DNA from: Candidatus Lustribacter sp.
Lineage (GTDB): Bacteria; Vulcanimicrobiota; Vulcanimicrobiia; Vulcanimicrobiales; Vulcanimicrobiaceae
DNA length: 64,000 nucleotides
Assembly (NCBI GenBank): GCA_965277805.1
Contig: OZ255842.1
Coordinates: forward strand, 5,344,001-5,408,000
Direction: 5' to 3'
Shown here: positions 19,541 to 36,965 of the stretch, piece by piece
How positions within the stretch are numbered: the stretch's first letter is position 1
How the letters are laid out: every line of letters begins with the position of its first letter
The notes under the pieces: generated by a model
What the model saw: the letters and a program-made list of their open reading frames with translations, nothing else
Databases searched by the model: none
What the model was told of the DNA's origin: nothing
Made by a program: the position numbers and the translations under genes

Positions 19541-19580
19541 GGCCGAAGGTTTCGGCCGCCGCGAGAGCACAATTGCCGAT

Positions 19581-19919
19581 ATGATCATGCGGCTTTGCGG
19601 CTTTCTCGCCGCTCTCGGACTCATTTCCAGCGTGACCGTTGCGTCGGCCCAGCCGGCGGCAATGAAGATGCCCAAAAAAGTCACCGCGTTCTACATGTGC
19701 AGCGGGCTGCACCAGAAAGCGATTTACGACAACGTAAAAAATCGCGTGTCGTTCGTGTGGGGCGCAAAAGACTACCATCTGCCGCGCGTTCCGTCGGCCG
19801 ACGGTTCACGCTACGCGGGCAACGGCCTCGAGTGGTGGTCGAAGGGCCCCAACGTCACCCTCTCAACCCTCCCCGAACACAACGTCCTCGCCACCTGCAC
19901 CCCCGGTAAGCGCTTCTAA
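19581..19919 (+). CDS. MliC/PliC-family lysozyme inhibitor-like exported protein
   Basis: Signal peptide; Y.C...LPRVPSADGSRY...WWSKG...C. Confidence 0.8.
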   Translation: MIMRLCGFLAALGLISSVTVASAQPAAMKMPKKVTAFYMCSGLHQKAIYDNVKNRVSFVWGAKDYHLPRVPSADGSRYAGNGLEWWSKGPNVTLSTLPEHNVLATCTPGKRF

Positions 19920-19930
19920 CTTTTCCCCAC

Positions 19931-20117
19931 TGTCATCCCGAGCGAGCGCCGTAGGGCGCGTAGACGAGGGACCAGTGATAATCCTCAATATCGGCCGGGG
20001 CAATTCCCCGAACGTGGGTACTTTGGCGTGCACGTTGGTGGAGTTGCCCTGACTGACGTTCCGGAGTTTCTCTCGTCCCTCGTCTACGCGCCCTACGGCG
20101 CTCCGCTCGGGATGACA
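19931..20117. repeat. REP/REPIN-like inverted-repeat element, copy A (187 bp)
   Basis: 42-43 bp terminal inverted arms TGTCATCCCGAGCG(G)AGCGCCGTAGGGCGCGTAGACGAGGGAC, between convergent genes; homologous to 35433-35641. Confidence 0.9.
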
Positions 20118-20125
20118 AATTGTTT

Positions 20126-21346
20126 TTAGGCGAGGGTGGCGGCTATTGTTGAGCGGAGGCGTTGGACGGCGTCGCGGATTTCTTCTTGCGTGATGATGAG
20201 CGGGGGGATGAAGCGTAGCGTGTTGCGGCCGGCGGCGTTGATGATCAGGCCGAAGTCGAGGCCGTGCGGCACGAACTCCGCGGCCTTGCGCGGCTCGCGC
20301 ACGGGCAGGCCCAGCATCAAGCCGTGACCGCGCGGCGGCTCGAAGACGTCGGGCCACTGATGCGCGATCGAGCGCAGCTCGTTCCGCAAGAGGGCGCCGA
20401 CGGTTTCGACGTGCGTGTCGAGATCGAGCACGTCGCGGATGGCCAGGTGCTCGAGCGCTGCCGCGGCGGGCACCGGCGAGCCGCCGAAGGTCGTGCCGTG
20501 ATCGCCGGGCTTGAGGCTCGTGGCGGCATCTCCGCGCACGAGCAGCGCGCCGATCGGCAGACCGTTGGCGAGCGACTTCGCGAGCGTGAACGCGTCCGGC
20601 TGCACTTCGTAAAGCTGCGAGGCGAACAGACGCCCGAGGCGTCCCATGCCGACTTGCACTTCATCGAAGATCAATAGCGCGCCGCGTTGCGTGCAGAAGT
20701 CGCGGGCGGCGGCCAGAAATTCCGGAGTCGCGGGCAGCACGCCGCTTTCACCCTGCACCGGCTCGACGATGAACGCGGCGGTGCGGTCGTCGATCCCCTT
20801 CGAAAGCGCGTCGATGTCGTTGAACGGCGTGAATGCGAAGCCTTCCGGTAACGGCGCGAAGCCTTCTTTGTAGGCCGGCGCGTCGGTGGCAGCGAGCGCG
20901 CCCATCGTGCGGCCGTGGAACGAATCGTTGCAGGCGAGAATCGTCGTGCGCTCTTTTTCGCCCTTGCGCCAAGCGAACTTCCGAGCGAGCTTGATCGCGG
21001 CTTCGTTTGCTTCGGTGCCGGAATTGCAGAAGAAGACCGTATCGAAACCGGACAATTCGGCCAAACGGTCGGCCAGGATGCCGGCCGGTTCGTGGTGGTA
21101 GAGGTTGCTGCAGTGCACGAGCGTCGCCGCCTGATCGGCGACGGCACGCGTGATGCGCGGATGCGCGTGCCCGAGCGCGACGACCGCGAGACCGGCGACC
21201 ATGTCGATGTAGCGGTTGCCCGATTCATCGAAGAGATACACGCCCTCGCCGCGCACGATGTTGATCTCTTGGCGCGCGTAGTTCGCCATGAGATGCGGAT
21301 GCCGCGTCATGATCCGTGCGCCGTGTTGAACTGCGGGAGAAGTCAT
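20126..21346 (-). CDS. argD: Acetylornithine aminotransferase
   Basis: FFCNSGTEANEAAIK, SFHGRT, EPVQGESG, FDEVQVGMGRLG, TLAKSLANG; last gene of the arg operon. Confidence 0.93.
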   Translation of the reverse strand: MTSPAVQHGARIMTRHPHLMANYARQEINIVRGEGVYLFDESGNRYIDMVAGLAVVALGHAHPRITRAVADQAATLVHCSNLYHHEPAGILADRLAELSGFDTVFFCNSGTEANEAAIKLARKFAWRKGEKERTTILACNDSFHGRTMGALAATDAPAYKEGFAPLPEGFAFTPFNDIDALSKGIDDRTAAFIVEPVQGESGVLPATPEFLAAARDFCTQRGALLIFDEVQVGMGRLGRLFASQLYEVQPDAFTLAKSLANGLPIGALLVRGDAATSLKPGDHGTTFGGSPVPAAAALEHLAIRDVLDLDTHVETVGALLRNELRSIAHQWPDVFEPPRGHGLMLGLPVREPRKAAEFVPHGLDFGLIINAAGRNTLRFIPPLIITQEEIRDAVQRLRSTIAATLA

Positions 21347-21359
21347 ACTCTTGTGGCGG

Positions 21360-21383
21360 TCCCTCGACAAGCTCGGGATGACA
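21360..21383 (-). repeat. Solo short REP unit of the same family
   Basis: Minus strand TGTCATCCCGAGC-TTGT-CGAGGGA shares both ends with the arms of copies A and B. Confidence 0.75.
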
Positions 21384-21388
21384 TTGTA

Positions 21389-23567: not shown

Positions 23568-24973
23568 GCCAGGCCCTTCGCGATCGTGTCGATCTCGCGC
23601 TGCGTCGAGGCGATAGAGATCGCGACCATATCGGGATTGGGCGAGCCGCTGGTGCGCTTCGCCCGGATCGATGCCGCACCGTCGAGCGGCGCTTCGGCCA
23701 CGCCGATCGCCTCGATGTCGCCGTCGTCGAGCGCGCGGCCCTGCCGTTCGGCCAGCAGCACGCGCTCGCCGACGGCCGCATGCGCTTCGCGCGCCGTCGC
23801 GCCGCGTGCGATCATCGCATCGGCCAGATCGGTTGCCACCGTGTAGCCCTCGGCGGCGCGCGCTTCCATCGCGTCGGCGTTAAAGTGGAGATGCGTGAAG
23901 GCGCGCGCGAAGGCGTCGAGCGCGGCCAGTGCGTGTTCGGTGCCGTGCACGATCTGGGCTTTGGTTTCTTGCAGATCGCGATGATATGAGAGGCCGATGC
24001 CGCTCGTGCTGGCGAGCGCGCCCGCATATGTGCCGAGCGTGCGCGCGGCGGCGGCCCGCACGAGTTCGAACGGATCCGGGTTTTTCTTCTGCGGCATCAG
24101 GCTCGAACCGGTTGCGGCGGCGTCGCCGAGCCGGGCGTAACCGAACGCCGGTGTCGTCCACAGCACGAATTCTTCGCTCGGTCGCGACGCCGCAACCACC
24201 GCGCGCGCGGCGGCGTGCAGCAGGTCGAGCGCGACGTCGCGATCGCCGACCGTATCGAGCGCGTTGCGCGAGGGTTCGCCGAAGCCGAGTTCGCGCGCGG
24301 CCGCAACGCGGTCGAGCGGCAACGACGAGCCGGCGAGTGCCGACGAGCCGAGCGGGCAGAAGCGCGCGGCGTCGCTCGCGACGCGCGCAAAACGGGTCGC
24401 GGCGCGCACGAAACCTTGCGCGGCGGCGTCGAGCCAGAACGCGAGCGAGACGGGTTGCGCGGGCTGCCAGTGCGTGGTGGCGGCGAGCAGCGTGCCGTCC
24501 TCCAGCGCGCCGAGCGCGCGTTCCTCGAGCGCGGCTGCGATGCCCAGTGCCAGCTGCGCACCCTTGGCGGCGCGGTCGCGCGCGTAGAGCAGCAACGTCG
24601 TTGCAACTTGATCGTTCCGGCTGCGTCCGGCATGTAAGGATGCCCCGGCTTCGGGCGCGAGTTCCCGCACCCGCGCGTCGATCGCGCCGTGAATGTCTTC
24701 GAACGTGCCGGCGCGCGCGAACGCGATCAGCGTGCCGTCGGCGATTTCGTCGGCGACGACGTCGAGGGCTGCGTGCAACTCGCCCGCCGCGACGCCGGTG
24801 AGCAAGCCGCCGCCTTCGAGCGCGGTGACGTGCGCGCGCGAACAGCGCACGTCGAACGGCGCCAGGACCAAATCGTCTTCGAGCGAGGAGCCGAAGGCGA
24901 TCAACGCGGCGTCGGGGGCAACGGCAAACCGTCCGCCCCACTGCAGCGCCGCAGCTTCACCCGTCGTAGCCAT
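23564..24973 (-). CDS. argH: Argininosuccinate lyase
   Basis: WGGRF, FEDIH, LHAGRSRNDQV, TH.QPAQP, GSSLMPQKKNPD, YHRDLQE. Confidence 0.94.
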   Translation of the reverse strand: MATTGEAAALQWGGRFAVAPDAALIAFGSSLEDDLVLAPFDVRCSRAHVTALEGGGLLTGVAAGELHAALDVVADEIADGTLIAFARAGTFEDIHGAIDARVRELAPEAGASLHAGRSRNDQVATTLLLYARDRAAKGAQLALGIAAALEERALGALEDGTLLAATTHWQPAQPVSLAFWLDAAAQGFVRAATRFARVASDAARFCPLGSSALAGSSLPLDRVAAARELGFGEPSRNALDTVGDRDVALDLLHAAARAVVAASRPSEEFVLWTTPAFGYARLGDAAATGSSLMPQKKNPDPFELVRAAAARTLGTYAGALASTSGIGLSYHRDLQETKAQIVHGTEHALAALDAFARAFTHLHFNADAMEARAAEGYTVATDLADAMIARGATAREAHAAVGERVLLAERQGRALDDGDIEAIGVAEAPLDGAASIRAKRTSGSPNPDMVAISIASTQREIDTIAKGLA

Positions 24974-25464
24974 TACGTGCCGGCGCGCATGTCTTCGAAG
25001 CGCTGCATGACCATGGTCAGCTTCTCGGGATCGTCGATGATCACGAGAACCGTATCGTCGCCGCCGAGCGTGCCGAGAATTTCCGGCCAGTCGGCCCCGT
25101 CGATCGCCGCGGAAACCATCATCGCGCTGCCGGGCGGGGTGCGCAAGACGATCTGATTCACGCTGCCGCGCACGCTGCCGACCAGCTCGGCGATGATGCG
25201 GTGCAGGCGTGAGGAGAACATCGGTCCGACGTTCGGCTCGATGTACTTGAACTGGTTGCCGCCGCCGCCCTTGAGCGGCACCTTCATCAGGCCGAGTTCC
25301 TTGATGTCGCGTGAAATCGTCGCCTGCGTGACCTCGTAGCCTTGCGCTTCGAGCAGCGCTACGAGTTCTTCTTGCGAGCGTACGGGCCGCGCGGCGATCA
25401 GCGCGAGGATCGCGCGCTGGCGCTTCGTTTTTGGTTGGAGCAGATTCGCGTCGACGACGTTCAC
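24973..25464 (-). CDS. argR: Arginine repressor
   Basis: RQRAI..LI....SQEEL...VTQATISRDIKEL, GTLGGDDT. GTG start overlaps the argF TGA. Confidence 0.94.
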   Translation of the reverse strand: MNVVDANLLQPKTKRQRAILALIAARPVRSQEELVALLEAQGYEVTQATISRDIKELGLMKVPLKGGGGNQFKYIEPNVGPMFSSRLHRIIAELVGSVRGSVNQIVLRTPPGSAMMVSAAIDGADWPEILGTLGGDDTVLVIIDDPEKLTMVMQRFEDMRAGT

Positions 25465-26435
25465 AGATCTTCTCCTAATCCGCGCAAGTCGGTCATCAGT
25501 GCGAGCAGCAGCGCCTTCTGCGCGTGCATCCGGTTTTCGGCCTGGTCGAACACGACGCTTTGCGGCCCGTCGATCACGCCGGCGGTGACTTCTTCGCCGC
25601 GATGCGCCGGGAGGCAATGCATGAAGAGCGCGTGCGGGGCCGCGGCCGCCATCAGTTCTTCGTTGACCTGATAGGCCCGCAGCGCGGCGGCGTTGCGTTC
25701 ACTGTAGGCTTCCTCGCCCATCGACGTCCACACGTCGGTGTAGACGACGTCGACGTCGCGCACGGCCCGCAGCGGGCTCGTGAACGCACGCGCGGTGACG
25801 TTGTAATTCTTGCCGAGCTCGACCACGCGCGCCAGCAGCGCATCCGGCGGGCGGTGCGTGATCGGCGACGCGAACGTGACCGACATTCCGCTCATCGCGG
25901 CGGCTTCGGCCAGCGAAAACGCCATGTTGTTCTTGCCGTCGCCTACATAGGCGAGCCGCAGCCCGTGCAGCGTGCCGAAACGTTCCTTGATCGTGAGCAT
26001 GTCGGCCAGGGCCTGACACGGGTGCGCGGCTTGCGAGAGACCGTTGATCACGGGCACGGTCGACGCGGCGGCAAAGCGCTGTAGGGGTTCGTGCTCGTGG
26101 GTGCGCACGACGATCGCGTCGGCATAGCGCGAGAGCACGCGCGCGACGTCCTCGGGCGTCTCACGCTTGCCGAGCAAGAAGTCGTGCCCGTGCGCCACGA
26201 CGGCGTGCCCGCCCAGCTGCGTCATCCCGATCTCGAACGAAACCCGCGTCCGCAGGCTCGGCTTCTCGAAGAGCATGGCCAGGCTCTTGTTCTGGAGGAA
26301 GTGCTGCTGCTCGCGGCCGGCTTCTTTGAGCGCACGGGCCGTACCGAGCAGGCTCGCCAGCTCGTCGGGGGAGAGGTCCAGCATCGTCAGCACGTTGCGC
26401 CCACGCAGGCGCCCGGCTGCAGGCATCGCTAACAT
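25461..26435 (-). CDS. argF: Ornithine carbamoyltransferase
   Basis: FEKPSLRTRVSFE, HPCQALAD, YTDVWTSMG, FMHCLPAHRG, QAENR. Confidence 0.95.
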   Translation of the reverse strand: MLAMPAAGRLRGRNVLTMLDLSPDELASLLGTARALKEAGREQQHFLQNKSLAMLFEKPSLRTRVSFEIGMTQLGGHAVVAHGHDFLLGKRETPEDVARVLSRYADAIVVRTHEHEPLQRFAAASTVPVINGLSQAAHPCQALADMLTIKERFGTLHGLRLAYVGDGKNNMAFSLAEAAAMSGMSVTFASPITHRPPDALLARVVELGKNYNVTARAFTSPLRAVRDVDVVYTDVWTSMGEEAYSERNAAALRAYQVNEELMAAAAPHALFMHCLPAHRGEEVTAGVIDGPQSVVFDQAENRMHAQKALLLALMTDLRGLGEDL

Positions 26436-26471
26436 TGCATAATTATACATCTTCTGCATATAAAGGGTCAA
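26434..26471 (-). promoter_or_regulatory. arg operon promoter with ARG box
   Basis: Minus strand TTGACC (26471-26466), 18 bp spacer, TATAAT (26447-26442). ARG-box-like TGCATAATTATACA (26436-26449) overlaps the -10. Confidence 0.8.
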
Positions 26472-26515
26472 GCCCGGCATCGGGAGACCCCGGCGGGACG
26501 GCGAAGGCCCCGGCG

Positions 26516-27400
26516 ATGGAAACGTTCGTTCCACTGATCAGCTCCCGGCGCGTCGGTCCGCTCGGCATGGCTCACTTGCCGCGATTCTGGGTGAAAATGC
26601 GCGCCCATGCCGTGGGGCTGCTCGCTGAGGGCTACCGCCACGGCTCGGGTGGCACGGATGAACATCTGCTGACGACGTTCGGGATCGACCTGGACGCGTT
26701 CACCGCCTTCATCGCGACCGCGCCCGACTATTTTCAGTGCGAGGCCTGGGTGCGCGAGAATGCCGCCGATACGTCGCCCGAGAAGATTCGCGCGTTCACC
26801 GACCATTGGCTCACGTTCGATATGCCCGAGCCGCGTCAGTCGGAATGGGCCGCGCGGTTCGGCCTCACCGCCGGCACGTACACCAAGGCGATGGCGCTCA
26901 ACGAACTCGACGACTGGGATCTCGTGCACCAACAGCTGCGCGCGCCGGATGCTCCGAAGACGCCGCTCGTGCCGGCGATCAGCAGCGCGCTAGCCGGTCC
27001 GCTCGGCGCGCTGCACGTGCCGCGCATGTGGATCAAACGTCGCGTGTACGCCGTAGGCCGGTTGCCCGAAGGTTATCGCATCGGCGCGAAGGGCTTCGAT
27101 GCGAAAGTTGCCGAGATCCTCGGGTTCGACTACGATGCGTTCGCCGCATATATCGATGCCGAAGCACCGAGCTATCTTGCCACCGAAGCGTGGCTGCGCG
27201 AGAACGCGAAAACGCTGAACGCCGAAACGATCGCCGCACTCAACAAGCACGTGCTCGCGACGAAACTGCCGGAAGCGTATGCGCCCGGCATGCGCGCGCG
27301 TTTGGGTTTACCCGATTCGTACGTCTTGAGCATTCCGATCAACGACCTCGACGATTGGTTTGAATTGCACGAAGCGCTCAAGGCCGTCGCGCCGGTTTAG
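26516..27400 (+). CDS. Protein with two tandem DUF5069-like domains
   Basis: Internal duplication: VP.ISS...GPLG..H.PR.W.K....G.L.EGY..G..G.D...P.Y...EAW.REN...N.LDDW occurs twice. Confidence 0.75.
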   Translation: METFVPLISSRRVGPLGMAHLPRFWVKMRAHAVGLLAEGYRHGSGGTDEHLLTTFGIDLDAFTAFIATAPDYFQCEAWVRENAADTSPEKIRAFTDHWLTFDMPEPRQSEWAARFGLTAGTYTKAMALNELDDWDLVHQQLRAPDAPKTPLVPAISSALAGPLGALHVPRMWIKRRVYAVGRLPEGYRIGAKGFDAKVAEILGFDYDAFAAYIDAEAPSYLATEAWLRENAKTLNAETIAALNKHVLATKLPEAYAPGMRARLGLPDSYVLSIPINDLDDWFELHEALKAVAPV

Positions 27401-27401
27401 C

Positions 27402-28298
27402 GTGCGGCGCGCGGGGGCGTTCCTTCGTCTCGCGCGGCCGGTCTTTTTGATCGGCGGCTTCGCCGGATTCGGTCTCGGTGCGGCGGTCGCGCGCTTCGAC
27501 GGCTATGCGCTCGACTGGCGCGCCTATCTGCTGGGTCAGCTCATCGTCACGTCGTTTCACCTGATGGTGCATTTCGGTAACGACTATTTCGATCGCGAAA
27601 CCGACATGGCGGGCGCGCGGACGCCGTGGTCCGGCGGCAGCGGCGTGCTGCCCGAAGGTGCGCTGCCCGCCTGGGTTGCGCTCGCCGCCGCGTGCGCGTG
27701 CGCTGCGGCCGGCTGTGCTGCGACGCTCGTCGCCGTCGCGAACGGTGCGTACGCGCTCGCCGGCGTGGGGCTCGCCATCGGAGCGCTGGCCTGGGCCTAC
27801 AGCGCACCACCGTTCCGTTTGCTCGCGCGCGGTCTCGGCGAACTCGATACCGTGACGGTGGTCGCGCTGCTCGTTCCGCTCGCCGGGTACGCTGCGTTCG
27901 CGCACACGCTGGCCGGGCACGCGTTCATCGCGGCGGTTCCCGGCGCGTGCGCGATGTTTGCGATGATGCTCGCGGTGGAGATGCCCGACGTGTCTGCGGA
28001 TGCTGCGAGCGGCAAACGGAATCTCGTCGTGCGCTGGGGTATTGCGAGTGCCGCTGTCGCCGCGCGTACCTTCGCATCGGGCGCCGTCCTGCTGCTGCTC
28101 TTCGTCGGCAGCACGACGTTCGGCGCACCGCCGCCGGCGTTCGTGGCGGTGATTCCGGTTGCGATTGTAGCGGCGGCCTTCGCCGCACCGCAATACGTCG
28201 CGCACCTATCGTTCGCGACGTTTCCGTTTCTCGGAGTAGCGCTCTACGGGCTCACGACGTGCGCCGGTATCGTCATCGTCCTGACGGGCGCGGCCTAA
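27402..28298 (+). CDS. UbiA/MenA-family prenyltransferase
   Basis: NDYFD..TD, SGGSGVL, YSAPP.RL..RGLGE, PD..AD...GKRNLVVR.G; multiple TMs. Confidence 0.85.
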   Translation: MRRAGAFLRLARPVFLIGGFAGFGLGAAVARFDGYALDWRAYLLGQLIVTSFHLMVHFGNDYFDRETDMAGARTPWSGGSGVLPEGALPAWVALAAACACAAAGCAATLVAVANGAYALAGVGLAIGALAWAYSAPPFRLLARGLGELDTVTVVALLVPLAGYAAFAHTLAGHAFIAAVPGACAMFAMMLAVEMPDVSADAASGKRNLVVRWGIASAAVAARTFASGAVLLLLFVGSTTFGAPPPAFVAVIPVAIVAAAFAAPQYVAHLSFATFPFLGVALYGLTTCAGIVIVLTGAA

Positions 28299-28738
28299 CT
28301 CTTGCGGCTGGCGTTCAGCGTGGTCGGAATCGTGTGCAGCGCTTTGCCGATCGGGCAAGATTCCTTCGCCGTTTGAGCGAGCTGCGCAAACTCATCGTCG
28401 AGAATTCCGCCTACCACGACCACCGTCGTCAGTTCGATCGAGGGGATCGCGAAACCGCCGTCCTGACGGTGCAAATGCACCTTTGCGGTCGTATCGATCG
28501 AGGCCGGCGAGTGCCCGGCGCGCGTCAGCGTGGCGTCGAGGGCCATGGTGAAACACGCGGCCAGCGAGGCGCCCAGCAATTCTTCGGGATTGGTGCCGGG
28601 CTCGCCGGCGAAGCGGGTGCCGAACGAGTAGTCGGCTTCGATCTTTCCGCTGCCGGTCTTGATCGTGCCGCGACCTTTAGCTACATCGCCTTCCCAATGA
28701 ACGGAGGCGGTGCGAGCGATATCTTCGGGAACGTGCAT
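28295..28738 (-). CDS. osmC: OsmC-family peroxiredoxin
   Basis: W.GD...G.G, YSFGTRF, GTNPEELLGA..AACF.MAL, AKESCPIGKAL. Confidence 0.9.
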   Translation of the reverse strand: MHVPEDIARTASVHWEGDVAKGRGTIKTGSGKIEADYSFGTRFAGEPGTNPEELLGASLAACFTMALDATLTRAGHSPASIDTTAKVHLHRQDGGFAIPSIELTTVVVVGGILDDEFAQLAQTAKESCPIGKALHTIPTTLNASRKS

Positions 28739-28813
28739 GCCGCCCAAAAGGCGGTCATCGCAGCGCGGGTTGCGCCGCGGTTCTCGTTGCACGACCGGCG
28801 AAGGTAGGCGCCG

Positions 28814-30172
28814 ATGCAGGAGGACCTCGACCGGGCCCGGCGGCTGGCCGATCTCGACCGCACGGATGAAGCGCGCGAAGCCTATCTGCAACTGCTCGCC
28901 CGCGCGCCGGACGATCTGCGCGCGCTGAACGACTTCGGCTCGTTTCTCATGCGGGGCGGTTACCGTGCCGCCGCGCGAACGGTCTACCAGCGCGCGCTCG
29001 CAGTCGATCCGCAGTCGGCGCTGGCGCACGCCAATCTCGCCAACGTGCTCTTCGCCGATACGGCGTACGACGACGCGCGAGCGCACTATGAAGCCGCGCT
29101 CGCGATCGAGCCGAACAACGCGGCCGCGCATCAAGGCCTCAGTTATGCGCTCACGCGGCTCGGACGCGACGCTGAAGCGCTGGTGCACCGGCGGCTGGGT
29201 TTCACCGGCCGCGCGCTGACCACCGCACCGTATCGTGGCGCGGGCCGTCCGGTCGACGTGCTGCTGTGCGTCTGCGCCGGCGGCGGCACGCTCTACACCG
29301 ATACATTCCTCGACGATCGCATCTTCCGCGTCACGACCTTGGTCGCCGACGTCTACGACGGAACGCCCGCGCTGCCGCCCGTTGACGTCGTGTTCAATGC
29401 GATCAGCGATGCGGATCGCGCCGGCGCCGCGCTGACGGCGGTCGACCGGTTCTTGGCGCAGAACGCGCGACCGCTGATCAATGCGCCCGCACGCGTCCTC
29501 GCCACCGCGCGTGCCGCCGGTGCCGCACGGCTGGCCGCGATCGACGGCGTCGTCGTGCCGCGCATCGCGACGGTGCCGCTGGCAGCGCTGCGCAGTTCGC
29601 CGGCGGACACCGTCGCGATGCACGGCTTCGCGTTCCCGCTGCTCGTGCGCGCGCCTGGATTTCACACCGGACAGCATTTCGTGCGCGTTGCGAGCGCCGG
29701 CGAAATCGGCGCCGCGATCGCCGGGTTTCCCGGTGACGATGCGCTCGTGATCGAGTACATCGACCTGCGCGGCGATGACGGGCGGGTGCGCAAGTATCGC
29801 GTGATGATGGTCGGCGGCACACTCTACCCGATGCACGTCGCGGTGTCGCGCGAGTGGAAGGTACACTATTTTAGCGCCGATATGGCATCGGACGCCGCGA
29901 ACCGGGCCGAGGACGAGCGTTTTCTGGCCGATCCGGTGAGCGCAATCGGGGCCCAAGCGTGGGCGCAGCTGGGCCGGATTCGCGAGGCGCTCGGGCTCGA
30001 GTACGCCGGCATCGATTTCGGAATCGACCGCGCCGGACGTGTGGTCGTCTTTGAGGCGAACGCAACGATGATCGTGCTGCCGCCCGGACCCGACACGATC
30101 TGGGATTATCGCCGCGCACCGGTCGCACGCATCGTCGACGCAGTTCGCGCGCTGCTGCTTGCTCCTCAATGA
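28814..30172 (+). CDS. TPR-repeat protein with a C-terminal ATP-grasp-like domain
   Basis: N-terminal TPRs (ALAVDP..A.AHANLA; ALAIEP..AAAH.GL); C-terminal INAP..V, FPLLVR..GFHTG, RKYRVM.VGG, GIDFG...VFEANATM. Confidence 0.72.
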   Translation: MQEDLDRARRLADLDRTDEAREAYLQLLARAPDDLRALNDFGSFLMRGGYRAAARTVYQRALAVDPQSALAHANLANVLFADTAYDDARAHYEAALAIEPNNAAAHQGLSYALTRLGRDAEALVHRRLGFTGRALTTAPYRGAGRPVDVLLCVCAGGGTLYTDTFLDDRIFRVTTLVADVYDGTPALPPVDVVFNAISDADRAGAALTAVDRFLAQNARPLINAPARVLATARAAGAARLAAIDGVVVPRIATVPLAALRSSPADTVAMHGFAFPLLVRAPGFHTGQHFVRVASAGEIGAAIAGFPGDDALVIEYIDLRGDDGRVRKYRVMMVGGTLYPMHVAVSREWKVHYFSADMASDAANRAEDERFLADPVSAIGAQAWAQLGRIREALGLEYAGIDFGIDRAGRVVVFEANATMIVLPPGPDTIWDYRRAPVARIVDAVRALLLAPQ

Positions 30173-30202
30173 GCCCGGACGACCCGTCGCGTATCACCCG
30201 GG

Positions 30203-31378
30203 ATGCACGCTCAAGTCGGAATCGTGGGAGCGGGGCCGGCCGGCCTCGTGCTCTCGCACTTGCTCCATCGTGCCGGCATCGAGTCGGTCATCGTGGAGGC
30301 GCGTTCGCGCGAGTATTGCGAAGGCCGCATCCGGGCCGGCGTGCTGGAACACGGCAGCGTCGATCTGCTCAACGCGACCGGCCTCGGCGTACGGATGACG
30401 CGCGAGGGTTTGGTCCACAACGGCATCTACTTGCGCTTCGGCGGACGCAGCCACCATCTCGACTTTGCCGAACTGACCGGCAAGCAGATCATGGTCTATG
30501 GCCAGCACGAAATCGTGAAGGACGTCATTGCCGCGCGGCTCGCAGCCGGCGGCCAGATTCTGTTTGAATCGAGCGACGTTTCGATCGAACGCTTCGATAC
30601 GGCGCAGCCCTCGATTCGCTTTCACGACGCCGGCGGCAACGCGCAACGACTCACCTGCGATTTCATTGCCGGTTGCGACGGTTTCCACGGCATCTGCCGT
30701 CCGAGCATTCCCGACGGAGAACTGGCGTTCTTCGACCGCATCTATCCGTTCGCGTGGCTCGGCATTCTGGCCGATGCGCCGCCCGTGTGCGAAGAGCTGA
30801 TCTACTCCAACACCGACCGCGGCTTCGCGCTGTTCAGTCAGCGCTCGCCCACCGTACAGCGGTATTACTTGCAGTGCACGCCGGATGAAGACATCAACGA
30901 ATGGCCCGACGCGCGCATTTGGCACGAGCTGCAAGCGCGTCTGCAGGGCGAAGACCCGCCCGAGCTGGTCGAAGGCGTGATCACGCAAAAAGGCGTCACC
31001 GCGATGCGCAGCTTCGTCACCGAGCCGATGCAGTACGGACGCTTGTTTCTAGCCGGCGACGCCGCGCACATCGTGCCGCCGACCGGTGCGAAGGGCATGA
31101 ACCTCGCGCTGGCCGATGTCGTGGCGCTCTCAGCCGGAATCGAGCGCTACTACCGCGACGGATCGATGAGCACGCTCGACGGCTATTCCGCGCAGGTGCT
31201 CAATCGCGTGTGGCGAGCCGAGCGTTTTTCCTGGTGGATGACCTCGATGCTCCACCGCTTCGACAACCAGACCGCGTTCGATCGCAAACTGCAATTCTCC
31301 GAACTCGAATACATCACGAGCTCGCGCGCTGGGGCGCAGAGCCTGGCCGAGAACTACGTTGGCTTCGCGATGATCTGA
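30203..31378 (+). CDS. pobA: 4-hydroxybenzoate 3-monooxygenase
   Basis: RIRAGVLE, VYGQ, AGCDGFHG, LAGDAAHIVPPTGAKGMNLA, RFSWWMT.MLH, AENYVG. Confidence 0.94.
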   Translation: MHAQVGIVGAGPAGLVLSHLLHRAGIESVIVEARSREYCEGRIRAGVLEHGSVDLLNATGLGVRMTREGLVHNGIYLRFGGRSHHLDFAELTGKQIMVYGQHEIVKDVIAARLAAGGQILFESSDVSIERFDTAQPSIRFHDAGGNAQRLTCDFIAGCDGFHGICRPSIPDGELAFFDRIYPFAWLGILADAPPVCEELIYSNTDRGFALFSQRSPTVQRYYLQCTPDEDINEWPDARIWHELQARLQGEDPPELVEGVITQKGVTAMRSFVTEPMQYGRLFLAGDAAHIVPPTGAKGMNLALADVVALSAGIERYYRDGSMSTLDGYSAQVLNRVWRAERFSWWMTSMLHRFDNQTAFDRKLQFSELEYITSSRAGAQSLAENYVGFAMI

Positions 31379-32736
31379 CGGCGTTCGACCGCGAGCGTGA
31401 ACGCGAGGCCGGCCAGCACGAGCGCGCTCGAGATCGCGAAGATCTGAGCGTAGCCCGCGGGGTCGTGCTGCAATACGATTGCCACAAGCGCGGGGCCCGC
31501 GGCGGCGCCCGCGATGCGCAGCAAACTGAAAAAGCCGATCCCCGCACCGTAACGCCCGGCCGCCGTTTGCGTTGCACCGGACGCGCCGGCCGTATATTCC
31601 GCGGCCAACGCGGCGCCGAGCAGCAGCATCGCCGGGAAGAACATCCAGAGACCGAGTTGCAAGTATGCCGTCACGGCGAGCAATGCGGTGCCGGCGGCAA
31701 CCGCGATCAGCCCGAGCTGAATCGTGACGCCGCTGCCGTAGCGCCGCACGAGAACGCTCGAGAACGGTGCGATCAGCGCCATCGCGAGCGGCATCGTCAA
31801 CGTGATGAAGCCCGCCGCCGCAACGGGCACCGCCAGCACTTGCTGCAGGTAGAGCGGAATCCCGAGCAGCGCTGCCGCAAACGCGAGCGTCGAGCCGAAG
31901 ATGCCGATGCAACTCGTGACGTACGATGGTTCGCGGAATGCCTGCGGCGAGACGAACGGCTCGCGCGCCGTGCGAATCACCCAAACGAACGCCAGCAAAC
32001 TCGCGCCGCCGCCGAACGCGATCGCTGCGAGCCACGGCGAATGCAGGCCGAGTTGCGGAATCGCGGTGAACGCGCTGAGCAGCAGCAGCGCGGCGAGGGT
32101 GAGCGAGACCGCACCGCGCCATTCCAGCGGCATCCGGCGCGGTTCATCGCTCGGCAGGTAGCGCCACGCACCGATGCATGCGAAGACGGCGATGAACGCG
32201 GCCGGCAGAAAGATCGAGCGCCAGCCGAAGAGGCTCGTGAAGATGCCGCCCAGCGGCGGCCCGAGCGCTTGTCCCGCGCTGTTCGCCATCGCCCACGCGC
32301 TGAGCGCGAGCGGGCGGTCACCGGGATCGTAGAGTTCGGCCAACAGCGTCAAGACGAGCGGCACGATGCCCGCGGCCGCCGCGCCTTGCACGATGCGCAC
32401 GGCGACGAGCACCGCGAGGTTCGGTGCCAGCGCACCGGCGACGCCGCAGATGCCGTAGACCGCGATGACGATGCAGTACACTCTACGCCGGCCGAAACGG
32501 TTGCCGATCCAATCGCCCAGCGGCAGCAGCGTCGCGAACGTGATGGCCTGCGAGGTGATGAGCAGTGAGGCATCCGCGATCGACACCTGCAGGTCGCGGG
32601 CGATGTTGGCGATCGGCACGTTGAGAATCGTGCTGCCGAGTACGGACATGAAGGTTCCGGAGACGACCGCGATGGTCGCGATCGTGCGCCCGGCGTGATT
32701 CCGGGTCGCCGCTGTGGTGGCCATTGGAACGCTCAT
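31354..32736 (-). CDS. MFS transporter (DHA2-like)
   Basis: GDWIGNRFGRRR motif A, RIVQG, GPPLGG...FGWRSIF; many TMs. Alternative ATG at 32724. Confidence 0.88.
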   Translation of the reverse strand: MSVPMATTAATRNHAGRTIATIAVVSGTFMSVLGSTILNVPIANIARDLQVSIADASLLITSQAITFATLLPLGDWIGNRFGRRRVYCIVIAVYGICGVAGALAPNLAVLVAVRIVQGAAAAGIVPLVLTLLAELYDPGDRPLALSAWAMANSAGQALGPPLGGIFTSLFGWRSIFLPAAFIAVFACIGAWRYLPSDEPRRMPLEWRGAVSLTLAALLLLSAFTAIPQLGLHSPWLAAIAFGGGASLLAFVWVIRTAREPFVSPQAFREPSYVTSCIGIFGSTLAFAAALLGIPLYLQQVLAVPVAAAGFITLTMPLAMALIAPFSSVLVRRYGSGVTIQLGLIAVAAGTALLAVTAYLQLGLWMFFPAMLLLGAALAAEYTAGASGATQTAAGRYGAGIGFFSLLRIAGAAAGPALVAIVLQHDPAGYAQIFAISSALVLAGLAFTLAVERRQIIAKPT

Positions 32737-32786
32737 GCTACGAGCATGCCAGGACGTCCCGCCCCGGCGGTCATACACTAGTGGGG

Positions 32787-33986
32787 ATGAAGGTCTTCGT
32801 CTTTGATCTCTTGCCCTACGGCGAAAATCTCGCGCACCTGCAGGTCGGTAAAGAACTTCCGTATCCGCTCTCGCAAAAGTATTTCAAGCCCGACGTTGCG
32901 GTGCGCACGTATGCGGAACACCTCGACGCGTGGGAGCTGATGGACGAGTTGGGCTACGACGGCGTCGGCTTCAACGAACATCACACCTCGCCGTACGGGT
33001 TGATGAACTCACCGAACTTGATGGCTGCCTCGGCGGCGCAACGGACGAAGAACATCAAGCTGCTGATCTACGGCAATCTGCTGCCGCTGCACGAACCGCT
33101 GCGCTTGGCCGAAGAGCTGGCGATGCTCGACTGCCTCTCGAACGGCCGTCTGATCTCGGGTTTCGCGCGCGGCATCCCGCGCGAGTACAACGTGCACAAC
33201 GTCAAGCACGCCGAATCGCGCGCGCGGTTCGAAGAAGCCTACGACATCATCACGCGCGCCTGGACCGAAGACGTGTTCTCCTACGAGGGCCGGTTCTGGT
33301 CGTATCGCGACGTAGGAATCTGGCCGCGGCCGGTGCAGCAGCCGATGCCGCCGGTCTGGACGCCGATTTCGAGCAGCAAGGAGTCGATCGAGTGGGCCGC
33401 GCGCCACAACATCCCGATCACGCCCGGTCTCGGTTCGCGCGGCATGCGCGAGGACATCACGCGCTACTACGCACAGTGCCTAGCGGCGGCCGGTCACAAG
33501 ATCACTCCCGGCCACCTGACGATCGGCATTGAGGCATACGTCGCCGAGAGCAAGGCGCAGGCCGTGCGCGAGTACGGACCGCATCATCTCTACTTCAACC
33601 GCGTGCTGTTCAGTCACGGCAACACGACGGAACTCGACCTCAACACGAAGACCGGCTATCTCACCGAACAATCGGCGAGCTTCATGCGGCCGGAAAATCT
33701 CGGGGCCGCGGCGCGCTCACGTTCCGACTACCGCGATATGACGATGGCCGATGTCGAGCGGAAGGCCGAGAACCTGCCGTGGGGCACGGCGGAAGAAGTG
33801 CGCGAGCGCATCATCGAGGAGGCGGAGCACGCCGGCGCCGAGACCGTGCTGATGAGCTTTAATCGCGGCGCGATGCCGCACGAGATGTTCGTCGAACAGA
33901 TCCGGCGTTTCGCCAAGGACGTGCTGCCCGCGCTGCAGGCGCATCAGATCACGACGGTGCCGTTGGTAGCGGGGGCCGCGGTTTAG
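32787..33986 (+). CDS. Luciferase-like (LLM) flavin-dependent oxidoreductase
   Basis: GYDGVGFNEHH, PLRLAEELAMLDCLSNGRL..GFARG, PRPVQQPMPPVW, FA..VLP.L. Confidence 0.9.
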   Translation: MKVFVFDLLPYGENLAHLQVGKELPYPLSQKYFKPDVAVRTYAEHLDAWELMDELGYDGVGFNEHHTSPYGLMNSPNLMAASAAQRTKNIKLLIYGNLLPLHEPLRLAEELAMLDCLSNGRLISGFARGIPREYNVHNVKHAESRARFEEAYDIITRAWTEDVFSYEGRFWSYRDVGIWPRPVQQPMPPVWTPISSSKESIEWAARHNIPITPGLGSRGMREDITRYYAQCLAAAGHKITPGHLTIGIEAYVAESKAQAVREYGPHHLYFNRVLFSHGNTTELDLNTKTGYLTEQSASFMRPENLGAAARSRSDYRDMTMADVERKAENLPWGTAEEVRERIIEEAEHAGAETVLMSFNRGAMPHEMFVEQIRRFAKDVLPALQAHQITTVPLVAGAAV

Positions 33987-33990
33987 GCGC

Positions 33991-35457
33991 GTGTCCCTCA
34001 AAGGTATCTTCGCACCGGAGTTCCGTCAGCGGCTGATCGCGCTGACGGTCGCGTGCGCGTTCTTCATGGAAATGCTCGACGGCAGCGTGATCGCGACGGC
34101 GTTGCCGCAGATGGCGCAGTCGTTCCATGAAAACGCCGTCAACCTCAGCATCGGGATGTCGGCCTATCTGCTCACGCTCGCGATCTTCATCCCCGCAAGC
34201 GGCTGGATTGCCGACCGGTTCGGTTCGAAGACGATCTTTTTGAGCGCGATCGCCATCTTCACCGCGGCCTCGGTATTCTGCGGCATTTCGAACACGCTCT
34301 TCGAGTTTACCGTCGCCCGCATCGTGCAGGGCGTGGGCGGCGCTATGATGGTGCCGGTGGGTCGCCTCGTGGTACTGCGCAGCAGCGACAAGCGCGACCT
34401 CGTCAACATGATGCAGTTCATTTCGACGCCCGGATTGATTGCGCCGATGCTCGGCCCACCGATCGGCGGGTTCATCACGACGTATTCATCCTGGCGCTGG
34501 ATCTTTTTCTTGAACGTGCCGATCGGCGCGCTCGGTCTCGCTCTGGTGCTGGCGTTCATGGTCAATCACAAAGCCGAAGAGCGCCGCTCGTTCGACTGGC
34601 CGGGTTTCGTCCTCAGCGGCGCGGGCCTCGCATCGCTGCTCTTCGGACTCGATCAACTCGGGCGCCCGAGTATCTCCTCGACGTTCACCGCAGCCCTGAT
34701 CGGCATCGGCATCGTGATCTGCGGCTTTGCCTACGTGCACTTGACGCGCACGGAGCATCCGCTGCTCGATCTCTCGCTCTTCAAGATTCACACGTTCAAG
34801 ATCTCGACGCTGCTGGCCGGCACGTCGTTCCGCATCGTGATCGGCACGACCCCGTTCCTGTGGCCGCTGCTCTTCCAAGTCGGCTTCGGCATGAGCGCGT
34901 TCGCGTCGGGTTCGCTGACGATCGCCTGCGCGATCGGCGACTTCGTGACGAAGTTCGTTTCGAAGAGGATTCTGCAGCGTTTCGGCTTCCGCCAAACGCT
35001 CACGATCAACGGAATTTTCTGCGCGCTGGCGGTTGGCGCGTGCGCGCTCTTCAACGCCTCGACCCCGGTAATCGTCCTTGCTGCCGTGCTGTTCATCATC
35101 GGCTGTTCGCGCTCGGTGCAGTTCGGCTCGTTCAACGCCTTGACGTACGGTGACGTTCCGCAAACGCGCATGAGCGCGGCCAGTTCGCTCGCCAGCACGT
35201 TGCAGCAGCTGGCATTCGGCGTCGGCGTCGCCTACGGCGCGCTGGTCTTGCACCTCGCGGCGCTCTGGAACGGCCGCAGCGGCGGTTTCACCGTCGCCGA
35301 CTTCCACCTCGCATTCCTCGCCACCGCCGCGCTCGCGCTCTTCTCCGCATTCTCGTTCACCCGCCTCGCCCCCGACGCCGGCGCCGAAGCCAGCGGCCAC
35401 ATCCCCCAACAGCCAACTTCCGCCAATCCCAATGTCATCCCGAGCGGAGCGCCGTAG
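33991..35457 (+). CDS. MFS transporter (DHA2/HsrA-like)
   Basis: FFMEMLDG.VIATALP, GWIADRFG, GGAMMVPVGR, WRWIFFLNVPIG. The stop codon lies inside repeat copy B. Confidence 0.9.
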   Translation: MSLKGIFAPEFRQRLIALTVACAFFMEMLDGSVIATALPQMAQSFHENAVNLSIGMSAYLLTLAIFIPASGWIADRFGSKTIFLSAIAIFTAASVFCGISNTLFEFTVARIVQGVGGAMMVPVGRLVVLRSSDKRDLVNMMQFISTPGLIAPMLGPPIGGFITTYSSWRWIFFLNVPIGALGLALVLAFMVNHKAEERRSFDWPGFVLSGAGLASLLFGLDQLGRPSISSTFTAALIGIGIVICGFAYVHLTRTEHPLLDLSLFKIHTFKISTLLAGTSFRIVIGTTPFLWPLLFQVGFGMSAFASGSLTIACAIGDFVTKFVSKRILQRFGFRQTLTINGIFCALAVGACALFNASTPVIVLAAVLFIIGCSRSVQFGSFNALTYGDVPQTRMSAASSLASTLQQLAFGVGVAYGALVLHLAALWNGRSGGFTVADFHLAFLATAALALFSAFSFTRLAPDAGAEASGHIPQQPTSANPNVIPSGAP

Positions 35458-35641
35458 GGCGCGCAGAGAGGGACGAGATATAGTCCTGAACGTTTACGCA
35501 GGGCAACTCAACCACCCGTGTGCGTTTCACAACGACGCGACAACCTGCGGTACCCACGTTTGTGGAATTGCCGTGGCTCGATTTCGAGATAATCTCTCGT
35601 CCCTCGTCTACGCGCCCTACGGCGCTCCGCTCGGGATGACA
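35433..35641. repeat. REP/REPIN-like inverted-repeat element, copy B (209 bp)
   Basis: Same terminal arms as copy A; 35593-35641 is identical to 20069-20117 (49 nt); the interior matches the reverse complement of copy A's interior. Confidence 0.9.
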
Positions 35642-35651
35642 GTGTGGGGGG

Positions 35652-36965
35652 CTAGGTCGTTTCTAGGGTTTTGAGCAACTCGCGTGGGCCTTCGGTTACG
35701 GCGCGATTGCAGAGTTCGTGCATGGCGGCGGTGTAGGCGGGTGATTTCGCTTGGAGTTGTTCGAACGTTAGCGGGGTTTCCGGGTCGCCGGGCGGGTGTT
35801 CTAGGGTTAGGCTGTGTTCGGTGCCGTTGTTGAGGCGGACGGTGATGCGGGCGGGCCAGAGGCGCGGGTAGACGTTGTCGAAGGCGTCGGTTGCCGCGGT
35901 TTCAACGCGTTTTTCGAAGGCGAGGATGGCGTCGCTGAACGGGCCGGCGCGCACGACGTCGTAGAGCACGTTGCGGTCGAGCGCGGCGGCGGCGACCTGG
36001 AAGGCTTGGCTCGTTGCGGTCGAGAGGCGCTCGCCGGCGCGTGAGGGGTTTTCGATCATCCATGCGTAGTCGCGTGGAACCTCGACGCGCACGTGTGCGA
36101 CGTTCGCCGGATCGATGCGTTCGCGTTCGCTGAGCGCGATGTAGGCGGCGGCTCCCGAGAGTGCCTGACGCGAGGTGCAGAACGGTTTTTGCGCGAGCGC
36201 GGCAATGTCGCCGTCGCCGATCGCGCGCGCGGCGAGTTCTTCGTCCATCACGTTCGGTAGCACGGCCGAATCATCGAGCAGCAAGCCGGCCGCGGCCGCG
36301 TTGGCCGCATCGACGCCGGTCTCTACCGACGCGCCGAAGAGATACCAGCGCGCGGTACGCGTGCCGCTGCGGCCGACGCGTGAGATGGTGCGCAGCGAAG
36401 CGATGCGCAGGGCTTGCGCGAGCGCGGGCGCATCGAGGCCGATCATCACGCCGGCAACGGCCGCGGCGGTAACGGGCGCGACGGCGATCGTGGGCCACGT
36501 ACCGCTGCGCAAGACGCTCGCGCCGCCGACCGCGGCGCCGAAGCGAATCGCAGCGGCGTAACCGGCCGCGAGCCCGCGCCGTAACGTCGCGCCGTCGACG
36601 GGCATGCGCGCCGCGACGGCGAGCGCGGCCGGAATCACGACGGCGCTGGCCGTGACGCATGTGGCGAGGTGGATGTCGTCGATCTCGGTATGCCGGATCG
36701 TCACGGCAAACGCGTTGGTTTGCCGCGGTGTCGCGCGCGTCACGCCGGCCACGCGCGCGGCGGTGCGGCCCTCATCGGTTTCGCGTCCGGCGAGAAACGC
36801 GGCGATCGTATCGCCGAGCCGCCGCGCCGCAATGTCCGATGCTACGTCGGCAGCATCGATTGCGGTGAGGCGTTCGGCGAAGGTCGCGAAGACGCTAGAC
36901 GAGTGCGGGTTGGGCGCGGTGGCAGAAGTCGCCGAAGGCTTCGCCGGGTCGTCGATCGGTGGCAT
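35652..36965 (-). CDS. MmgE/PrpD-family protein (start uncertain)
   Basis: E.DD.H....T.SAVVIPAALA, GTWPT, QKPF, WPARITV, PPGDPETPL. The only upstream ATG overlaps the sulfite reductase gene by 71 bp. Confidence 0.72.
   Translation of the reverse strand: MPPIDDPAKPSATSATAPNPHSSSVFATFAERLTAIDAADVASDIAARRLGDTIAAFLAGRETDEGRTAARVAGVTRATPRQTNAFAVTIRHTEIDDIHLATCVTASAVVIPAALAVAARMPVDGATLRRGLAAGYAAAIRFGAAVGGASVLRSGTWPTIAVAPVTAAAVAGVMIGLDAPALAQALRIASLRTISRVGRSGTRTARWYLFGASVETGVDAANAAAAGLLLDDSAVLPNVMDEELAARAIGDGDIAALAQKPFCTSRQALSGAAAYIALSERERIDPANVAHVRVEVPRDYAWMIENPSRAGERLSTATSQAFQVAAAALDRNVLYDVVRAGPFSDAILAFEKRVETAATDAFDNVYPRLWPARITVRLNNGTEHSLTLEHPPGDPETPLTFEQLQAKSPAYTAAMHELCNRAVTEGPRELLKTLETT

Follow-up and report, generated by a model that had tools for sequence, protein, structure and literature searches.

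Rho-dependent terminators are hard to recognise by sequence, and the role of repetitive extragenic palindromic (REP) repeats has been argued over for decades. The closest described counterparts of the repeats considered here are the CGTC REPs. According to the sections on these REPs in Di Nocera et al. 2013 (PMC3733652), they carry an unpaired terminal CGTC tag (TGTC in many repeats), an 8-9 bp stem with A-T pairs at its first and second positions, a 4-5-nucleotide (nt) loop and a CCA-like tail. They often occur as inverted dimers foldable into one large hairpin, no dedicated transposase is known for them, and most are found no further than 20 bp from the 3' end of an open reading frame (ORF) at a convergent or co-directional junction, with an overlap in some cases (PMC3733652). 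The REPs of E. coli are described as partial Rho-dependent terminators, mRNA stabilisers and blocks to 3'-5' exonucleases (bioRxiv 10.64898/2026.03.23.713779; Dar and Sorek 2018, PMC6061677), and the C>G skew that typifies Rho-dependent terminators is missing from the REP motif of E. coli (bioRxiv 10.64898/2026.03.23.713779). The present analysis concerns a family of hairpin repeats in Candidatus Lustribacter sp. and the coding sequence that runs into them. Two of its elements, A and B, lie in a 64,000-nt stretch of the genome, hereafter the window (G000:C1:5344001-5408000, where G000 is the genome under study, a single contig of 5.53 Mb with 64.3% G+C that is ~95% complete). The coding sequence ahead of these repeats carries a C-rich, G-poor zone, or halo, and this halo was confirmed to be real and genome-wide.

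The repeats are built from a module that exists in two forms. An iterated nhmmer profile (E < 1e-3) found 97 copies of a long module in the genome (43 nt, consensus TGTCATCCCGAGCGAAGCGCC-GAA-GGGCGCGTAGACGAGGGAC), and a second profile found 142 additional copies of a short module (31 nt, TGTCATCCCGAGCTTGTCGAGGGACCGCCAC), which was first met behind strongly skewed gene ends that the long-module profile had scored as element-free. The consensus of both forms starts with TGTCAT, and a few copies start with CGTC. A module consists of an unpaired TGTCAT head, a covarying stem of four Watson-Crick pairs, a tandem G.A/A.G, one G-C pair, a loop and a CCGCCAC tail. The loop has 5 nt in the short module and contains a nested GC hairpin in the long module. 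For the outer stem pair, T-A occurs 104 times and C-G 26 times, and the stem reads TCCT...AGGA in relatives from other genera. The tandem G.A/A.G is retained in 133 and 136 of the 142 short copies, and the first stem position is A.C in 124 of them. Modules form inverted pairs (24 long-long and 10 short-short in this genome), and the remaining copies have no partner within 400 nt, save six mixed or same-strand pairs. The median distance from stop codon to module is 14 nt for the long form and 7 nt for the short form, and the junctions at which a gene runs into the head of a module are convergent in 83% (long) and 64% (short) of cases, compared with 33% over all genes.

This anatomy and location appear to fit CGTC/TGTC-tagged REPs. 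The tag, a 5' arm starting with AT, the 5-nt loop of the short form, the CCA within the CCGCCAC tail, high copy number, inverted dimers and placement by the 3' ends of ORFs are all shared with them. The modules depart from these REPs in their imperfect stem, with the tandem G.A/A.G and an A.C at its base, and in the nested GC hairpin of the long form. Furthermore, the sections of PMC3733652 on these REPs give no effect on the composition or codons of flanking genes. Likewise, the REPs and bacterial interspersed mosaic elements (BIMEs) of E. coli are extragenic hairpin repeats past gene ends, enriched between convergent genes and free of a U tract. As far as the parts of the E. coli studies on these repeats go, the C>G zone there is mild and lies downstream of the hairpin, whereas the zone described here is strong, lies upstream and is written in synonymous codons. 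A cmscan search of window 19500-36200 against Rfam (E up to 1) gave no family match to the element, the lone match being at chance level and elsewhere.

The elements, their neighbouring genes and the halos in the window are as follows.

19931..20117, unstranded: element A, two long modules in inverted orientation at 19931-19972 (+) and 20075-20117 (-), between convergent genes (nhmmer, inverted repeat); genome coordinates 5363931-5363972 (+) and 5364117-5364075 (-)

35433..35641, unstranded: element B, two long modules in inverted orientation at 35433-35474 (+) and 35599-35641 (-) (nhmmer)

19581-19919, + strand: MliC-like gene (Pfam MliC), running into the left module of A

20126-21370, - strand: class-III aminotransferase gene (Pfam Aminotran_3, residues 34-408 of 414)

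33991-35457, + strand: major facilitator superfamily (MFS) transporter gene (Pfam MFS_1), with its stop codon inside the left module of B

35652-36965, - strand: MmgE/PrpD-family gene (Pfam MmgE_PrpD N and C domains)

19680..19919, + strand: halo A-left, last ~80 codons of the MliC-like gene; 120-nt skew -0.259

20126..20365, - strand: halo A-right, last 80 codons of the aminotransferase gene, within the conserved domain; + strand 120-nt skew +0.447

35218..35457, + strand: halo B-left, last 80 codons of the MFS transporter gene; 120-nt skew -0.373

35652..35891, - strand: halo B-right, last 80 codons of the MmgE/PrpD-family gene; + strand 120-nt skew +0.343

21353..21383, - strand: third module, short form, at a co-directional junction right after the stop of gene 21389-22618 (-)

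The paired modules of A and B are separated by spacers of about 100-120 nt. The inverted repeat of element B has 38-nt arms that are 95% complementary, and the entire element is predicted to fold into one long RNA hairpin (-142.3 kcal/mol, z = -13.6). The last residues of the MFS transporter ORF (..VIPSGAP) and its TAG stop are supplied by the left module of B (window 35433-35457). The gene ahead of the third module has a short halo, in which the third positions of the last 20 codons are C in 15 cases and G in 2.

The halo was first noticed beside A and B. An earlier note on this stretch, made from the letters alone, had counted C and G by hand on the + strand, and a recount gave exactly its numbers (46 C and 16 G at 35341-35430, 106 G and 45 C at 35641-35880, 39 C and 9 G at 19851-19930, and 54 G and 20 C at 20121-20240). 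It had also judged three element-free convergent junctions to be less skewed, and they are, with absolute skews of 0.01-0.17 compared with 0.26-0.45 at elements A and B over 120 nt. For the genome at large, genes were called with an own hexamer-based caller with start trimming, which gave 5297 genes at 93% coding density. Unless stated otherwise, GC skew refers to the sense strand over the last 120 nt before the stop. Gene ends were classed by what comes after the stop codon (long module, short module or module-free), and the module-free controls were cleared of both module forms with the two nhmmer profiles. A gene is said to face a module when its stop codon is followed by a module whose TGTCAT end points towards the gene.

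Gene ends facing a long module had a mean skew of -0.264 (n=79) and those facing a short module -0.214 (n=76), compared with -0.059 for module-free convergent ends (n=1454) and -0.027 for module-free tandem ends (n=3275). The difference from module-free convergent ends was highly significant for both forms (Mann-Whitney p 3e-29 for long and 3e-22 for short modules). A skew of -0.21 to -0.26 over 120 nt amounts to a C/G ratio of ~1.5-1.7. Facing genes make up only 155 of 4980, yet they account for 43 of the 111 ends with skew below -0.3 and for 18 of the 30 below -0.4. Thus neither of the two outcomes that the note had named as refuting it, equal skew at element-free convergent ends and copies of the element without a halo, is seen in the genome. 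The same picture emerges when gene calls are left aside. The 5' flanks of 96 long modules had a median skew of -0.26 over 90 nt, and 69% of them were below -0.2, compared with 3.9% of random 90-nt windows of the genome, whose skew has a standard deviation (sd) of 0.11 and falls below -0.4 in 0.1% of cases. Along these flanks the skew was about -0.03 at a distance of 1 kb and -0.29 at 40-80 nt, and this gradient reaches about 300-400 nt from the module. Near the module, A was up to 0.24 and C to 0.40, and G was down to 0.22. The skew of facing genes was -0.251 in convergent (n=114) and -0.208 in tandem (n=41) settings, and it was largely independent of the distance between stop and module, at least up to 60 nt.

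Is the halo a property of the DNA around an element, or of the transcript that enters it? The earlier note had described mirror-image halos centred on each element. This description did not survive: the halo is one-sided, lying on the 5' (TGTCAT) side of each module along the sense strand of the gene that enters it. A and B look like mirrors because each consists of two inverted modules that face two convergent genes. Gene ends at the back of a lone short module were at background level (-0.035, n=65). Where a module at a convergent junction faces just one of the two genes (n=59), the skew was -0.239 for that gene and -0.068 for the opposite one (paired p 7e-6). In co-directional pairs (n=39), it was -0.212 at the end of the upstream gene and -0.021 at the start of the downstream gene, where a mirror would give about +0.2. 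Skew confined to the upstream sense strand at co-directional copies is what the note had predicted for selection by Rho.

The halo is written mainly in synonymous codons. Among 124 facing genes of at least 210 codons, third positions shifted from 0.35 to 0.16 for G, 0.09 to 0.05 for T, 0.47 to 0.58-0.65 for C and 0.09 to 0.20 for A, with an onset about 80 codons ahead of the stop. Codon positions 1 and 2 changed slightly and only in the last 20 codons, and amino-acid composition was nearly constant. As the note had remarked for the genes beside the elements, A-ending codons that are rare elsewhere are gained: CTA is at 0.14 in the halo and 0.02 in the rest, AAA at 0.72 and 0.34, and TCA at 0.15 and 0.04. 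No specific sequence motif in the halo rose above second-order expectation. In the ribosomal-protein and EF-Tu cluster AAA is at 0.26, CTA at 0.01 and GCG at 0.45 (GCG is at 0.19 in the halo). Since halo codons are unlike those of this cluster, translational optimisation was ruled out as the cause. Run-on of ORFs through G-poor sequence was also ruled out as the main cause, because the halo lies within Pfam domains and in C-termini that align to those of G005, another genome of the genus.

Further evidence for a link to the module comes from this relative. Modules of this kind are carried by 6 of the 7 congeneric genomes besides G000 and also occur elsewhere in the taxonomic family, in some genera that include those of G010, G013 and G016. 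G005 is module-poor, with 16 matches to a relaxed pattern. Genes were called in 2.0 Mb (51%) of G005, and reciprocal best hits with aligned C-termini gave 1017 pairs. For 30 facing genes the skew was -0.225 in G000 and -0.011 in the G005 orthologues (Wilcoxon p 9e-9), and the third-position skew was -0.54 and -0.10, respectively. No module core was found within 150 nt downstream of any of the 30 orthologues. Their skew is level with that of orthologues of non-facing genes (-0.014), and the halos are therefore not old properties of the facing genes. In other words, the comparison with orthologues lacking the element that the note had called for came out in favour of a halo that goes with the module.

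This result bears on the explanation that modules have a preference for their insertion sites. Under it, modules would preferentially land just past the ends of genes whose C-rich, G-poor composition was there beforehand, and the halo would be older than the element. Three observations would suit such a history. Module variants turn over at sites A and B much faster than a halo could evolve, a C-rich flank lies at the back of the lone short module that G003 has at site A, and 58 module-free gene ends have skews below -0.3. However, the 30 G005 orthologues are at background (-0.011 and -0.014), and the module-free ends below -0.3 show a small excess over a normal tail (39 compared with ~26 and 19 compared with ~11 expected, as estimated from means and sds). 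Furthermore, degenerate modules occur at some of the skewed ends scored as module-free, and insertion preference leaves the origin of the halos unexplained. It is regarded as quite improbable. On a side note, module-free convergent ends had a skew of -0.078 in G000 and of -0.026 in their G005 orthologues (n=219); the extra C skew could reflect decayed, unrecognised or formerly occupied module sites.

What kind of substitution makes a halo? The final 50 codons were compared between G005 and G000 at those fourfold sites where the residue is conserved (n=572). From G005 to G000, the A fraction went from 0.10 to 0.09, C from 0.41 to 0.67, G from 0.38 to 0.21 and T from 0.11 to 0.03. There were 115 sites with G in G005 and C in G000 and 29 with the reverse; the corresponding counts were 47 and 5 for T to C, 36 and 15 for A to C, and 27 and 11 for G to A. 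These lopsided differences indicate a force that raises C first and removes G and U, mostly by transversions. At twofold sites, the A fraction of purines went from 0.54 to 0.65 and the C fraction of pyrimidines from 0.70 to 0.88. The shift at fourfold and twofold sites was absent from the interior codons of facing genes and from 300 other gene ends.

The note had offered two alternatives for the halo, element-triggered mutagenesis and selection for Rho-loading sites. In the mutagenic explanation, nicking, hairpin extrusion or stalled polymerases would expose one strand at the element and bias its substitutions. The smooth decay of the skew over ~300 nt would suit a mutational footprint, as would the residual shift in antisense context (-0.054 compared with +0.011, p 0.004) and the tails of genes adjoining modules, which by eye diverge between G000 and G003 far beyond the 4% background. 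The halo, however, is found on one side only and keeps to the sense strand of the gene, being about four times weaker in antisense. At fourfold sites, G-to-C transversions dominate together with T-to-C changes while A stays flat, and a pattern of this kind without a rise in A is therefore not that of cytosine or adenine deamination. Deamination of an exposed strand would raise fourfold A and keep the purine share constant. Transcription-associated deamination of the non-template strand enriches G over C on the sense strand, the opposite sign to that of the halo. In addition, the lightly constrained spacers between stop and module (-0.144, n=37) are less skewed than fourfold sites. A mutational footprint is thus an unlikely cause of the halo, and strand-specific mutagenesis triggered by the element is rated as very improbable. 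A related idea is that a strand-specific DNA process linked to the module, for example repeated nicking and gap filling, installs C on the strand 5' of the TGTCAT head and in this way recodes neighbouring gene ends. It is given a slim chance; if it were true, a non-coding repeat family would be directing local, oriented mutagenesis of host coding sequence. Of the two alternatives, mutagenesis thus went unsupported because of its spectrum (not driven by transitions), the orientation dependence of the halo and the less skewed spacers, and selection for Rho loading fits all tests run, in that the halo is sense-only, concentrated at synonymous sites, dominated by G-to-C and T-to-C changes and predicted to be less folded.

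How would a transcript profit from such a zone? The predicted minimum free energy (MFE) per 120 nt is -31.8 kcal/mol in the halo, -42.2 kcal/mol at other gene ends and -44.1 kcal/mol in interior windows of facing genes. Rho utilization (rut) sites are C-rich, G-poor and weakly structured stretches of RNA, ~80 nt or more in length, upstream of the release site. Classical rut sites lie in untranslated RNA and are individually idiosyncratic. The halo resembles them in being C-rich, G-poor and weakly folded over 120 nt in a genome that has a rho gene (PF07497 Rho_RNA_bind, 115.7 bits, in a 464-aa open frame, G000:C1:2824732-2824947). It differs from them in that ~155 candidate zones lie within the last 80 codons of genes and are tied to one repeat family. 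That Rho binds C-rich, G-poor, weakly folded RNA is also the account of Dar and Sorek 2018 (PMC6061677). Canonical intrinsic terminators seem to be rare in this lineage. By a strict, simple criterion, a hairpin with a T tract followed only 4-8% of gene ends in G000, compared with 3% in a reverse-complement control, and such a site lay within 110 nt of 8 of the 154 facing gene ends. The window had 8 terminator-like sites, compared with 14 in shuffles (sd 4.7). The module itself was rejected as an intrinsic terminator, as it runs into CCGCCAC... without a T run.

The model that best accounts for these results is that selection on the transcript has made the halo, so that a rut-like C-rich RNA ahead of the hairpin forms a composite Rho-dependent terminator with it. 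This model is considered to have about an even chance of being right. The genome is compact, with modules lying 7-14 nt past the stop and 25 of 160 facing ORFs terminating within one, which leaves a rut site no untranslated space upstream of the hairpin. Halo and module are read as one putative terminator whose loading zone would be in the last codons. They would then constitute a compact Rho-dependent terminator and 3'-end unit. Rho would load where the coding RNA ends, after ribosomes have cleared it, and the hairpin just beyond the stop would pause the polymerase and later shield the 3' end. In this respect the model agrees with the account of E. coli REPs as partial Rho-dependent terminators and mRNA stabilisers. 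Paired modules would serve both convergent genes. The parts given here to Rho as the reader of the signal, and to the hairpin as a polymerase pause or RNA protector, are inferred from sequence.

Several observations weigh against this model. The C>G zone lies upstream of the hairpin and is itself translated, so that Rho would be expected to face competition from ribosomes there. According to the part of Dar and Sorek 2018 (PMC6061677) that deals with Rho-dependent ends in E. coli, their C>G signal is located in untranslated RNA, downstream of the protective hairpin. The depletion of U is as strong as that of G, which fits unstructured RNA generally and not Rho alone. The 5' flanks that lie antisense to a gene start (n=50) are still shifted relative to the baseline (-0.054 and +0.011, as above), although this antisense-context halo is about four times weaker than the sense halo. 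Skew is mild in the spacers of at least 25 nt that separate stop and module (n=37), although a rut zone might be expected to include them. A second genus, represented by G016, has a weaker halo, its 30 modules giving a mean skew of -0.138 on the 5' side and -0.038 on the 3' side. Finally, the gene calls come from an own hexamer-based method whose verification by Pfam covered the window, where the two agreed.

The loss of U as well as G leads to a further explanation, namely selection at the RNA level that has no need of Rho. In this case a C/A-rich, G/U-poor leader would stay unstructured and thereby aid the folding of the hairpin during its transcription, or serve another factor or nuclease, and the module would act only as a 3'-end stabiliser of the mRNA or as a site for some other protein to bind. 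The two bases lost, G and U, are those that pair promiscuously, and where C is no option the gain is in A. Over 120 nt, the predicted fold is ~10 kcal/mol less stable, and the halo is restricted to the side that is transcribed before the hairpin. REP hairpins are, moreover, known to protect upstream mRNA, as described in parts of two studies on E. coli (10.64898/2026.03.23.713779; PMC6061677). On the other hand, a zone of 240 nt is long for guarding a hairpin of 20-40 nt, and fourfold sites favour C, not A (A 0.10 to 0.09, C 0.41 to 0.67). A C-rich leader could also pair with the G-rich 3' arm of the hairpin (GAGGGAC), which would undo the insulation. Rho-free selection is held to be unlikely, though less so than insertion preference or mutagenesis.

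The modules at a given site change quickly. At compared junctions the flanking genes are 88-96% identical, and different module variants occupy orthologous junctions, which means that variants turn over quickly at fixed sites. Site A has no module in G007, G002 and G005, and the gene ends there look G-richer, with less skew in the aminotransferase gene as well (by eye, uncounted). In G003, which is 96% identical to G000, a single short module replaces the long pair at site A (L006:3924-3970), and the flank at the back side of this module is still C-rich. Site B has a short pair in G003 (L012:1380-1470) and a short-plus-long composite in G004 (L009:1350-1545). In the last ~15 codons beside element B (window 35395-35432 and 35645-35690), the divergence between G000 and G003 (L012) is by eye far above the 4% background, and the gene tails of G000 appear, also by eye, to have lost many G relative to G003. 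Site A in G004 (L018:1275-1335) has an unrelated spacer in which a GC hairpin is followed by a T run, resembling an intrinsic terminator. This replacement suggests that the repeat module and an intrinsic terminator can substitute for each other.

How the modules move is a separate question. REPINs, the inverted REP-like doublets mobilised by RAYT transposases (Bertels and Rainey), reportedly form a long hairpin, occur in many copies, are inherited along lineages and carry the tag GTAG. The modules are similar to REPINs in forming inverted doublets that fold into a long hairpin and in having many copies. They are unlike REPINs in their tag, which is TGTC and not GTAG, and in that PF01797, the profile for Y1/RAYT transposases, had no match in the ~95% complete genome, while the same search was positive in 6 of 14 control genomes. 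The elements were also considered as miniature inverted-repeat transposable elements (MITEs). They do end in inverted repeats (38-nt arms with 95% complementarity in element B), but a MITE identity was rejected since no direct repeat of the kind left by target-site duplication flanks element A or B (by eye, at these two copies).

Some sites show iterations of the module or of its head. A tandem array at G000:C1:2165287-2165400 repeats the unit TGTCATCCCGAGC plus 8 nt with a period of 21 nt, and short modules stand in tandem with a period of 36-40 nt at G013:C1:414669-414946 and 174425-175216. Ahead of several modules in G000:C1 (at about 5414140-5414206, 5290930-5290990, 5162869-5162930 and 5014760-5014825) additional TGTCAT/TTGTCA(T) motifs occur, two to four at each, with a spacing of 8-12 nt. 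These motifs look like what binding-site iteration or slippage of the head might leave. Elsewhere in the window, a 624-aa ORF at 28295-30172 (-) is a shadow frame of which the last ~165 codons are a real OsmC-like gene; the opposite strand carries a gene with tetratricopeptide (TPR) repeats at 28814-30172 (+).

REP-like hairpin repeats and Rho-dependent termination are both known already; the part that seems new is a strong synonymous halo coupled to the orientation of a repeat at ~155 genes. A full-text literature search found no prior description of a one-sided synonymous halo tied to repeat orientation. One repeat family marks ~155 gene ends that are recoded over ~80 codons, with third-position G halved and fourfold C at two thirds. 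A one-sided C>G skew at third positions ahead of a repeat is a simple signature by which similar units can be sought in other genomes. If the composite terminator is real, one part of it would be a mobile hairpin and the other a rut zone encoded by synonymous codon choice. In a little-studied lineage with few intrinsic terminators, its ~155 sites would provide candidate Rho loading sites that are numerous, natural and uniform, and repeats of this kind would shape the codon usage of their neighbouring genes.

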